In this document: piece by piece, positions 50,005-50,201 of the stretch
Layout of the letters: each line of letters begins with the position of its first letter
How positions within the stretch are numbered: position 1 is the stretch's first letter
Source of the DNA: a virus
Direction: 5' to 3' (one strand)
IMG/VR virus record: IMGVR_UViG_3300045988_124250
Length of the DNA: 64,000 nucleotides
Position numbers and translations under genes: made by a program
Notes under the pieces: generated by a model
What the model saw: only the letters and a program-made list of their open reading frames with translations
The model's database searches: none
Told to the model about the DNA's origin: nothing

Positions 50005-50046
50005 TGGCACGGCCGGCTGGACTCGAACCAGCAGATACAGGAGTCA
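50005..50046 (-). tRNA. trnQ: tRNA-Gln(UUG) 3' exon
   Basis: (U)GAC-UCCUG-UAUCU-GCUGGUUCGAGUCCAGC-CGGCCGU-G-CCA. Confidence 0.55.
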
Positions 50047-50166
50047 GGGCGAGAAAATGAGACTTGCACTCATACTACCAATCATTCCGGTTGGCGTCCT
50101 ACTAACAGAACTTACACTATGCTACTTAACCCATCACACAATATAACCCATTTAAACGATTTCTCG
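50047..50166 (-). other. ~120-nt insertion in anticodon loop of trnQ(UUG)
   Basis: separates halves that share perfect acceptor (ACGGCCG/CGGCCGU) and anticodon-stem (CAGGA/UCCUG) complementarity; too short for a canonical group I intron. Confidence 0.45.
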
Positions 50167-50201
50167 AAAGTCCTGTGCCTTACCTGTTTGGCGACGGCCG
50201 T
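50167..50201 (-). tRNA. trnQ: tRNA-Gln(UUG) 5' exon
   Basis: ACGGCCG-UC-GCCAAACAGGUAAGGC-A-CAGGA-CUUU closely resembles E. coli tRNA-Gln UCGCCAAGCGGUAAGGCACCGGA. Confidence 0.55.

Follow-up and report, generated by a model that had tools for sequence, protein, structure and literature searches.

The 64,000-nt stretch of the IMG/VR virus record IMGVR_UViG_3300045988_124250 analysed here (the window) carries at 50005-50201 a tRNA-Gln(UUG) gene, the 197-nt pre-tRNA of which is split between nucleotides 35 and 36 of the anticodon loop by a 121-nt insert (50046-50166); the gene, its exons and all parts of the insert lie on the minus strand. The insert is tRNA-like in shape and is a conserved RNA of four helices. 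It is highly probable that the gene is a functional split tRNA-Gln and that the insert belongs to a family of tRNA-like introns. As to how such introns would be removed, we propose, with a probability of roughly 45%, an RNase P-type cut and a tRNA 3'-end-type cut followed by sealing with an Rnl-type ligase.

In a permissive scan, the Rfam tRNA model (RF00005; gathering score 29 bits) matched 50008-50201 with 44.2 bits (E 9e-8), i.e. above the gathering score once the insertion was skipped (~124 nt in the anticodon loop), and ARAGORN with introns allowed reported a single interrupted tRNA at 50005-50201 with an intron of 121 nt. Default ARAGORN and Rfam at gathering thresholds each listed 26 tRNAs, on the minus strand between 43.9 and 61.8 kb, and none at 50005-50201. 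From the sequence and exon covariation, the 35-nt 5' exon (50167-50201) reads ACGGCCG-UC-GCC-AAACAGGUAA-GGC-A-CAGGA-CUUU and comprises the acceptor strand ACGGCCG, the D-arm GCC-AAACAGGUAA-GGC, the anticodon-stem strand CAGGA and loop nucleotides 32-35 (CUUU). The 41-nt 3' exon (50005-50045), GAC-UCCUG-UAUCU-GCUGG-UUCGAGU-CCAGC-CGGCCGU-G-CCA, supplies loop nucleotides 36-38 (GAC), the anticodon-stem strand UCCUG, the variable loop, the T-arm GCUGG-UUCGAGU-CCAGC, the acceptor strand CGGCCGU, G73 and CCA. The 76-mer obtained by splicing in silico was called tRNA-Gln(ttg) and was identical to the tRNA-Gln of phage Phass-1 at 65/76 positions. Together with uninterrupted tRNA-Gln homologs, these matches bear out the first-pass annotation of a trnQ(UUG) with an insertion in its anticodon loop. 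That annotation had given the insertion as 120 nt at 50047-50166; the location holds, while the length was off by one.

To collect relatives, IMG/VR was scanned with sequence patterns, and the sequences fetched were then screened with nhmmer. The same split tRNA-Gln gene is present at a minimum of about 30 loci, on viral contigs of ~150-220 kb and on gut metagenome contigs; one contig with the split gene had been binned as a 'Mollicutes' metagenome-assembled genome. Scans of metagenome and genome collections with a loose pattern yielded mostly chance matches and, by nhmmer, at least nine true extra copies, all on gut-type phage contigs. The inserts are of three types, A (121 nt), B (123 nt) and C (120-122 nt), which sit in at least five different tRNA-Gln bodies. 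Because the split gene recurs at about 30 loci with compensatory changes, the match is far beyond chance. Every type-A and type-B genome carries the insert, and among GenBank phages we found no relative either of the 121-nt intron or of the 57-nt tRNA-Ile intron described below.

The bounds of the insert follow from uninterrupted homologs and from the type-C relatives. Removal of the insert, which begins with CGAGAAA and ends with ...CUCGCCCU, leaves CAGGA-CUUUGAC-UCCUG, the same as in uninterrupted gut-phage tRNA-Gln genes, and the spliced junction of the phage-specific tRNA-Gln reads ...GGCACAGGACUUU|GACUCCUG.... In other gut phages (Phass-1 OQ749652, MT835477, MT836871 and IMG/VR loci), the uninterrupted tRNA-Gln(UUG) genes carry exactly GGTAAGGCACAGGACTTTGACTCCTG, and the 26-nt anticodon arm is identical to that of the uninterrupted tRNA-Gln in Phass-1, MT835477, MT836871, L023 and L378. 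Of these reference genes, one is annotated in GenBank and the others were called by ARAGORN; they come from Phass-1 of the 'code 15 clade', from two human-faecal phage scaffolds that are unverified and from several contigs in IMG/VR. Thus, the uninterrupted copy that the first-pass annotation had suggested looking for in related phages exists as the tRNA-Gln(UUG) of other gut phages; a search of IMG/VR for the window's own tRNA-Gln body without an intron gave no match.

Types A and B alone would also allow a junction shifted by one U. Type-C inserts end in ...CCA|GAC, which leaves U35|C ... N|G36 as the only option that fits every variant; at this junction, the terminal nucleotide of the intron is U in types A and B and A in type C, with intron lengths of 49-123 nt across the family. 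ARAGORN by default placed the junction at CUUUC|...G|AC, giving Glu(UUC); this placement is ruled out by the uninterrupted tRNA-Gln homologs and the type-C junctions. The body is of the Gln type, with a 3-bp D-stem (GCC/GGC), a weak 1-72 pair (A1-U72), G73 and the loop CUUUGAC. Judged by these features, the outer gene is a tRNA-Gln(UUG) isoacceptor. ARAGORN and Rfam found no other tRNA-Gln in the window; two tRNA-Glu genes and a CUA suppressor are present. The suppressor tRNA (49016-49089, minus strand) has the anticodon CUA, a U1.U72 mismatch and G73. Many open reading frames (ORFs) on the minus strand contain in-frame TAG codons, e.g. nine in 52386-53666, consistent with TAG recoding.

Both the exons and the insert are under selection. 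Among 11 distinct tRNA-Gln genes spliced in silico, the exon cloverleaf was 99.5% paired, compared with 27-43% in slid controls, and double changes were seen in 13/20 pairs. In the anticodon stem, which bridges the insert, double changes occurred in three of the five pairs, and the loop halves CUUU and GAC were invariant. That the cloverleaf is kept with compensatory changes argues strongly against a pseudogene.

For the insert, 20 distinct sequences were aligned, again with slid alignments as controls, and all statements on pairing and conservation in the insert refer to this alignment. Pairing was preserved in 97.3% of cells, compared with 35-46% in the controls, and double changes were found at 17/28 pairs. 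The first helix, Pa, is acceptor-like and starts at the first intron nucleotide: its 5' strand CGAGAAA (50160-50166; intron nucleotides 1-7) forms 7 bp with the 3' strand UUUCUCG (50050-50056; nucleotides 111-117), is 100% paired and has double compensatory changes in 6/7 pairs. Nucleotides 8-20 (UCGUUUAAAUGGG; 50147-50159) resemble a D-loop lacking its D-stem; U8, A14, G18 and G19, counted from the first intron nucleotide, occupy their canonical tRNA positions in columns that are invariant or nearly so. The 10-mer GUUUAAAUGG, i.e. insert nucleotides 10-19, also occurs in the D-arm (GUUUAAAUGGUAAAAU) of a 73-nt intron in tRNA-Ile. The second helix, Pb (50112-50146), is an 11-bp hairpin with a conserved loop of 13-14 nt, GAUGGGUUAAGUA(G); it is 99.5% paired, with double changes in three pairs and one-sided changes in five. 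It is followed by a conserved joiner of D-arm-like sequence (GUUCUGUUAGUAGGACG; 50095-50111) with the invariant core GUUCUGUUAG-AGG, and by Pc (50078-50094), a variable hairpin of 4-5 bp in which 4/5 pairs covary. The last helix, Pd (50057-50073; nucleotides 94-110), is a T-arm-like hairpin of 5 bp and 7 nt, AUGAG-UGCAAGU-CUCAU, which is 100% paired with double changes in 4/5 pairs and an invariant loop. The Pd loop retains U54, C56, R57 and A58 of a T-loop, while position 55 is G and not U. Pd abuts the 3' strand of Pa without a spacer, so that a 12-bp stack is possible as in the acceptor/T arm of a tRNA; over Pa and Pd together, 10/12 pairs covary and all are paired. The loops and joiners UUAAAUGGG, GGGUUAAGUAG, GUUCUGUUAG-AGG and UGCAAGU are nearly invariant.

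The insert ends with a 4-nt tail, CCCU (50046-50049), of the form N-C-C-N and directly before the 3' exon, as read from the sequence and its relatives. The tail is always 4 nt in the listed intron variants (CCCU, UCCU, CUCU, UCCA, CCCA, GCCA, ACCA and ACUA); type-C tails are UCCA, CCCA and GCCA, and NCCA is found in most related introns. The Rfam tRNA model reads the joiner as the D-arm, Pc as the anticodon stem and Pd as the T-arm, at only 13.8 bits. The folding energy of the pre-tRNA is no different from that of shuffled sequences (z = -0.76); therefore, the structural support is the covariation. Folding of the insert with its exons, as suggested in the first-pass annotation, thus gave no energetic signal, and a conserved four-helix structure emerged from covariation. 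The same annotation had offered a novel mini-intron or a target of unusual processing, and the pairing and double changes in both insert and exons sustain this; its other suggestion, inactivation of the gene by a degenerate remnant, is made less likely by that covariation. As it had stated, the insert contains no ORF. UAG triplets occur in conserved, unpaired parts of the intron within 50095-50146 (minus strand), UUAGUAGG in the joiner and AAGUAG in the Pb loop; they probably derive from the tRNA D-arm consensus GGUAGAG, a curious feature in a phage that reassigns UAG.

The insert does not belong to the known intron classes. Rfam searches at E<=10 detected no intron or ribozyme family in 49500-51000 or in the intron alone, and only the weak tRNA match. 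For a group I intron, there is no match to RF00028 or the P3-P9 core at this threshold and no omega-G, and the junction geometry likewise agrees with the earlier verdict that the insertion is not group I. An archaeal-type bulge-helix-bulge (BHB) intron was rejected as well: both junctions are at one end of the 7-bp Pa, at distances of 0 and 4 nt, and since the loop strands CUUU and CCCUGAC cannot form a BHB, this class is excluded.

Introns of the same design, in a family spanning 49-123 nt, interrupt the anticodon loops of tRNA-Gln, -Ile, -Leu, -Lys and -Pro in related gut phages of ~150-220 kb. Besides the large Gln introns, these are a 49-nt intron at position 35/36 of tRNA-Gln (tail ACCA), a 57-nt intron at 32/33 of tRNA-Ile(UAU) (UCCA), a 73-74-nt intron at 36/37 of tRNA-Ile(UAU) in type-B phages that also bear the large Gln intron, a 65-nt intron at 34/35 of tRNA-Leu(CAA) (UCCA), a 61-nt intron at 35/36 of tRNA-Lys(UUU) (ACCA) and an 87-nt intron at 34/35 of tRNA-Pro(UGG) (ACUA). 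In all nine tabulated introns, a terminal helix of 7(6) bp starts right at the 5' junction and is adjoined by a 5-bp/7-nt hairpin; U8 and a 4-nt tail are likewise shared. The hairpin loops of the short introns are mostly UUCGAAU or UUCAAAU, and introns of 49-66 nt consist of the acceptor/T-arm minihelix alone with no extra domain. Scored by themselves against RF00005, the 73-nt Ile intron reached 41.8 bits, the 61-nt Lys intron 38.5 bits and the 57-nt Ile intron 24.4 bits (gathering score 29), and introns scored in this way align as tRNAs with the anticodon arm missing or stunted. In the 73-74-nt Ile(UAU) intron, which was found in L017, L019, L021, L022 and L266 (e.g. L017 11960-12032), a 3-bp stem with a 9-nt loop replaces the anticodon arm. 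The 61-nt Lys(UUU) intron (L049 1775-1835) has the acceptor GGGGAAG/CUUCUCC with G3.U70, A73 and CCA, which we take to be the alanine identity set of tRNA-Ala and transfer-messenger RNA (tmRNA); it also gives a weak Rfam match (17.7 bits) to permuted tmRNA.

An unbiased scan for a tRNA-like module inside a 7-nt loop closed by 5 bp recovered the Gln, Ile (two families), Leu and Lys cases, all of which, once spliced in silico, were called as the expected tRNAs; the Pro case came from ARAGORN. For one sequence, the chance of 7+5 bp in fixed register plus CC is ~5e-7. A free-floating module of acceptor, T-arm and NCC has ~7 chance matches per shuffled window, and the evidence is therefore the register at the junctions and not the presence of the module. 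One such free-floating module in the window, at 7011-7059, lies inside an ORF and was dismissed.

Introns of a related kind have been noticed before. In Lak megaphages, which are TAG-recoded, tRNAs contain 'enigmatic', highly conserved introns (Devoto et al. 2019, Nat Microbiol, PMC6784885; preprint 10.1101/356790), of which the Thr(TGT) intron was noted as possibly encoding a tRNA itself while the others had no Rfam match (PMC6784885). In the Tyr, Phe, Thr and Gly introns of Table S6 in that paper (PMC6784885), we found a small hairpin and a AAAUUAAAC-like linker and, 3' of these, an acceptor-like helix with a T-arm of the UUCGAAU type and an N-C(U)A tail that adjoins the 3' exon. Thus, the introns described here resemble those of Lak in residing in the anticodon loops of a TAG-recoded gut phage, in being conserved, in lacking an Rfam family and in their tRNA-like 3' module. 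They differ in the size of the phages (~150-220 kb versus ~540 kb), in the host tRNAs (Gln, Ile, Leu, Lys and Pro versus Tyr, Phe, Thr and Gly) and in architecture: the 5' hairpin and AAAUUAAAC segment are absent here, the whole intron being the tRNA-like module, and the 121-nt Gln intron possesses a further conserved domain as well as free-standing paralogs. At the sequence level, homology to the Lak introns was not detectable. A literature search on tRNA-like introns or RNase P-dependent phage splicing returned nothing beyond the Lak papers and no later proposal of a mechanism. In total, tRNA-like phage introns had already been noticed in Lak but not explained, and the present case differs in phages, host tRNAs and architecture.

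Across the present family, the ends of the intron are constant while its position in the host loop varies (32/33, 34/35, 35/36 and 36/37), and the splice sites are therefore most simply set by the intron itself. The 5' junction sits where RNase P cuts a tRNA-like substrate, and the 3' junction where the mature CCA end would lie; at -1 of the 5' junction, the present intron has U, and the other intron families have U or C. For bacterial RNase P, an acceptor/T-stem minihelix suffices as substrate, U(-1) is preferred and the 3' RCCA is read. Thermotoga tRNase Z and E. coli RNase BN are able to cut right after an encoded CCA; the products of RNase P and RNase Z have 3'-OH and 5'-P ends, and T4-type ATP-dependent Rnl enzymes join a 3'-OH to a 5'-P. 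In the mechanism that we propose, the 5' exon would be released, ending in U35 with a 3'-OH, by an RNase P-type cut at the foot of the acceptor-like helix, and a tRNA 3'-end-type endonucleolytic cut 4 nt past the helix, after NCC(A/U), would leave G36 with a 5'-P. The Rnl-type ligase of the phage encoded in the window could then reseal the anticodon loop with no healing required, and what is cut out would persist as a stable small RNA of tRNA-like shape. The broader proposal of a third route of tRNA splicing, through RNase P, an RNase Z/BN-type enzyme and an Rnl ligase, with a functional 121-nt RNA being released that is sometimes a free-standing gene, is more tentative still.

The candidate exon sealer is a putative Rnl2/Rnl5-like ATP-dependent RNA ligase of 456 aa (26018-27385, minus strand) with motif I (KxxG) present as KMHG and a PHA02142/NgrRnl-like N-terminal OB region. 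Many homologs, 70-93% identical, are pre-annotated with PF09414. A profile of the ligase found only RNA ligases in the PDB (T4 Rnl2 at E 0.011, Naegleria Rnl at E 0.12); single-sequence PDB searches with the ligase and with a DUF2828 protein of the window gave nothing significant. The match to TIGR02306 has E 3e-9 and is far below the family cut-off. The ligase is present on 14/14 intron-bearing contigs of type A, type B and L056.

Several points weigh against the proposed mechanism. The window's intron by itself scores beneath the RF00005 gathering score (13.8 bits, E 1.8) and has no D-stem, and its tail is CCCU instead of CCA. The ligase scores 25.2 bits against PF09414, just under the gathering score of 27, and its AlphaFold2 model is unusable (pLDDT 43.5). 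It also occurs in many phages with an uninterrupted tRNA-Gln, and its co-occurrence with the intron is therefore not specific. Moreover, ligases of the Rnl2/Rnl5 type are known for duplex nicks and not for anticodon loops as is T4 Rnl1. In bacteria, 3' maturation of precursors that encode CCA is mostly exonucleolytic, which would destroy the 3' exon, and a precise endonuclease cutting after position 76 in the host is an assumption of the mechanism. Next, a kinase/phosphoesterase pair, for which the window has candidates, would be superfluous for RNase P/Z products and would fit healing-and-sealing or repair against nucleases. Finally, Lak megaphage introns have ~27 extra nt 5' of the tRNA-like module, and a simple rule by which the RNase P site is the 5' splice site fails there.

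The strongest alternative, which we nevertheless consider unlikely, is that the intron is removed by a dedicated phage or host endonuclease that recognises the tRNA-like shape, e.g. a PIN-PhoH protein (18263-19516, minus strand) or another enzyme; if the ends were 2',3'-cyclic phosphate and 5'-OH, a kinase and a phosphoesterase would heal them and the Rnl would seal them, as in T4. The window has candidate genes for this. In addition to the Rnl-like ligase and PIN-PhoH, it encodes a Pnkp-like polynucleotide kinase (24301-24804, minus strand; AAA_33, phrog_505, bacterial Pnkp kinase domain), a metallophosphoesterase (23546-24301, minus strand; Metallophos_2, phrog_547) and an RlaP-like nucleotidyltransferase (29277-30083, minus strand). 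The kinase and metallophosphoesterase are, by context, a candidate RNA end-healing pair, and the fact that such a pair is not needed for RNase P/Z products speaks for this alternative, as does the extra 5' sequence in the Lak introns. The repair genes, however, are equally explained as a defence against host anticodon nucleases, and the flush fit of the junctions to the sites of tRNA 5' and 3' maturation would be a coincidence. Moreover, there is no BHB structure, and no EndA-family splicing endonuclease was seen among the ~20 selected of ~65 window ORFs scanned for domains, in a genome of ~197 kb. The RNA-repair-like genes are spread over ~23 kb (18263-41283, minus strand), and this region also encodes a DUF2828/DUF7788 'RNA-binding protein' that is possibly Ro-like (39757-41283, minus strand) and a band-7 protein named from sequence only (22082-23470, minus strand).

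Less probable again is that the insert is a gene in its own right for a tRNA-like small RNA, with the tRNA-Gln transcript serving as its processing scaffold, the two halves never being rejoined and the host tRNA-Gln being used. The observations closest to this are free-standing copies of the element. In contig L035, an element of ~119 nt with the terminal helix GUUGAAG/CUUCAAC and the tail AUCA is located directly upstream of a tRNA-Gln whose sole intron is the 49-nt mini-intron; in L041, a free-standing element with the tail AUUU lies upstream of an uninterrupted tRNA-Gln(UUG). The large RNA is thus kept even when it is not an intron. In addition, its loops and joiners are conserved beyond the needs of a passive intron. 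The CCA-type tail is restricted to intronic copies, free-standing copies having no CCA. Against a small-RNA gene stand the compensatory changes of the exon cloverleaf, including those in the stem that spans the insert, and the restoration of a canonical Gln loop by CUUU and GAC; likewise, the 49-66-nt introns have no extra domain, and the window has no other detected tRNA-Gln.

A new small self-splicing or self-cleaving ribozyme is very unlikely. The conserved unpaired nucleotides and the compact four-helix fold would suit one, which would have to be of a new class as the insert is below group I size; but no ribozyme or intron family of Rfam matches, the intron has no terminal G at the Gln junction, and the junction geometry shared with the 49-66-nt minihelix introns favours a common protein-dependent route. 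Known self-cleaving ribozymes (hammerhead, twister, pistol, hatchet and hepatitis delta virus-like) were dismissed for lack of a match to the Rfam covariance models. That the tRNA-Gln is a dead gene, inactivated by a mobile or decayed element, hardly deserves consideration: standard tRNA finders miss it and homing-endonuclease genes are scattered through the tRNA region, but exons and insert covary across four or five tRNA-Gln bodies and all genomes of types A and B carry the insert, with no intron-less allele detected in IMG/VR.

If RNase P-type and 3'-end-type cuts do excise these introns, the route would differ from those of the known intron classes. Like bacterial group I introns (in tRNA-Leu(UAA), -fMet, -Ile and -Arg, and in Asn/Asp of Patescibacteria, PMC13011429), the present introns lie in the anticodon loop with homing-endonuclease genes nearby; unlike them, they lack both a group I core and an omega-G at the Gln junction, do not match RF00028 and are 49-123 nt rather than ~200 nt or more. 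With BHB introns, which are removed by EndA/TSEN plus RtcB or Trl1 and in archaea also occupy non-canonical positions, they would share protein-dependent excision and ligation of tRNA halves. The junctions, however, lie 0 and 4 nt from one helix end and not in two 3-nt bulges 4 bp apart, the predicted ends are 3'-OH/5'-P rather than cyclic phosphate/5'-OH, and no EndA was seen in the ORFs scanned. Some archaeal tRNA introns encode a functional small RNA, e.g. the box C/D RNA in the tRNA-Trp intron. As in MALAT1 mascRNA, plant t-elements, tRNA-flanked phage small RNAs and the Y RNA YrlA, a tRNA-shaped module would serve as a processing signal; unlike these RNase P/Z substrates, the module is inside the anticodon loop of another tRNA, so that a ligation step is required. 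Similar to rsr-yrlA-rtcB operons, the window has both a Ro-like/DUF2828 'RNA-binding protein' and RNA-repair genes, but unlike in Y RNA the terminal helix covaries freely, there is no conserved Ro-binding bulge and no Rfam Y RNA matches.

The tRNA region has further features. At 50381-50530 (minus strand), a T-arm and 3' acceptor strand, ACAGG-UUCAAAU-CCUGU-UGAACGC-A-CUA, are followed by the complementary GCGUUUA, a D-arm and an anticodon arm (GAU); this looks like a circularly permuted or fragmented tRNA-Ile. It scores a sub-threshold 27.3 bits against the Rfam tRNA model and is conserved in type-A relatives only, at 96-97% identity. In the region of 58438-58507 and 58222-58294 (both minus strand), Rfam found an extra tRNA with a CAU anticodon (35.8 bits) that ARAGORN missed, and a 'tRNA-Phe(AAA)' called by ARAGORN has mismatches in the acceptor and anticodon stems and may be degenerate. 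Genes of homing-endonuclease type lie among the tRNAs in L035 (9471-10020), in L041 (~215-700, minus strand) and in the window (62534-63226, 45442-45888, 12149-12838 and 59284-59928); the product of 62534-63226 is PD-(D/E)XK_5 by Pfam, while the HNH and GIY-YIG types were assigned by sequence alone. The tRNA-Pro(UGG) of L035 has a 474-nt insert with an ORF that is PD-(D/E)XK-like by appearance, and this insert lacks tRNA-like ends. The motif AAAAATATAATATAATATATATAGAAAGTTAAGAAAGG, in parts of at least 18 nt, is found upstream of genes at about ten minus-strand sites (~63358, 61946, 60372, 51845, 46790, 46265, 41375, 36353, 27434 and 25299) and in full length at three or four, and is probably a phage promoter or leader.

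Altogether, these observations mean that phage tRNA sets are under-called: tRNA finders run at their defaults overlook the sole tRNA-Gln gene found in this window of a TAG-recoded phage, and also the Ile, Leu, Lys and Pro genes of its relatives. Moreover, the introns described as enigmatic in 2019 gain a common anatomy, in which an acceptor/T-arm minihelix with U8 and a tail of the NCCA type, 4 nt long, fit the junctions exactly. The free-standing copies point to a conserved small RNA, new and tRNA-like, that is tied to tRNA-Gln in phages that read TAG as sense. If the proposed mechanism is true, this would be the first case in nature of splicing by RNase P/Z-type cuts and an Rnl ligase, and phage RNA ligases would have a housekeeping job besides the repair of nuclease damage.

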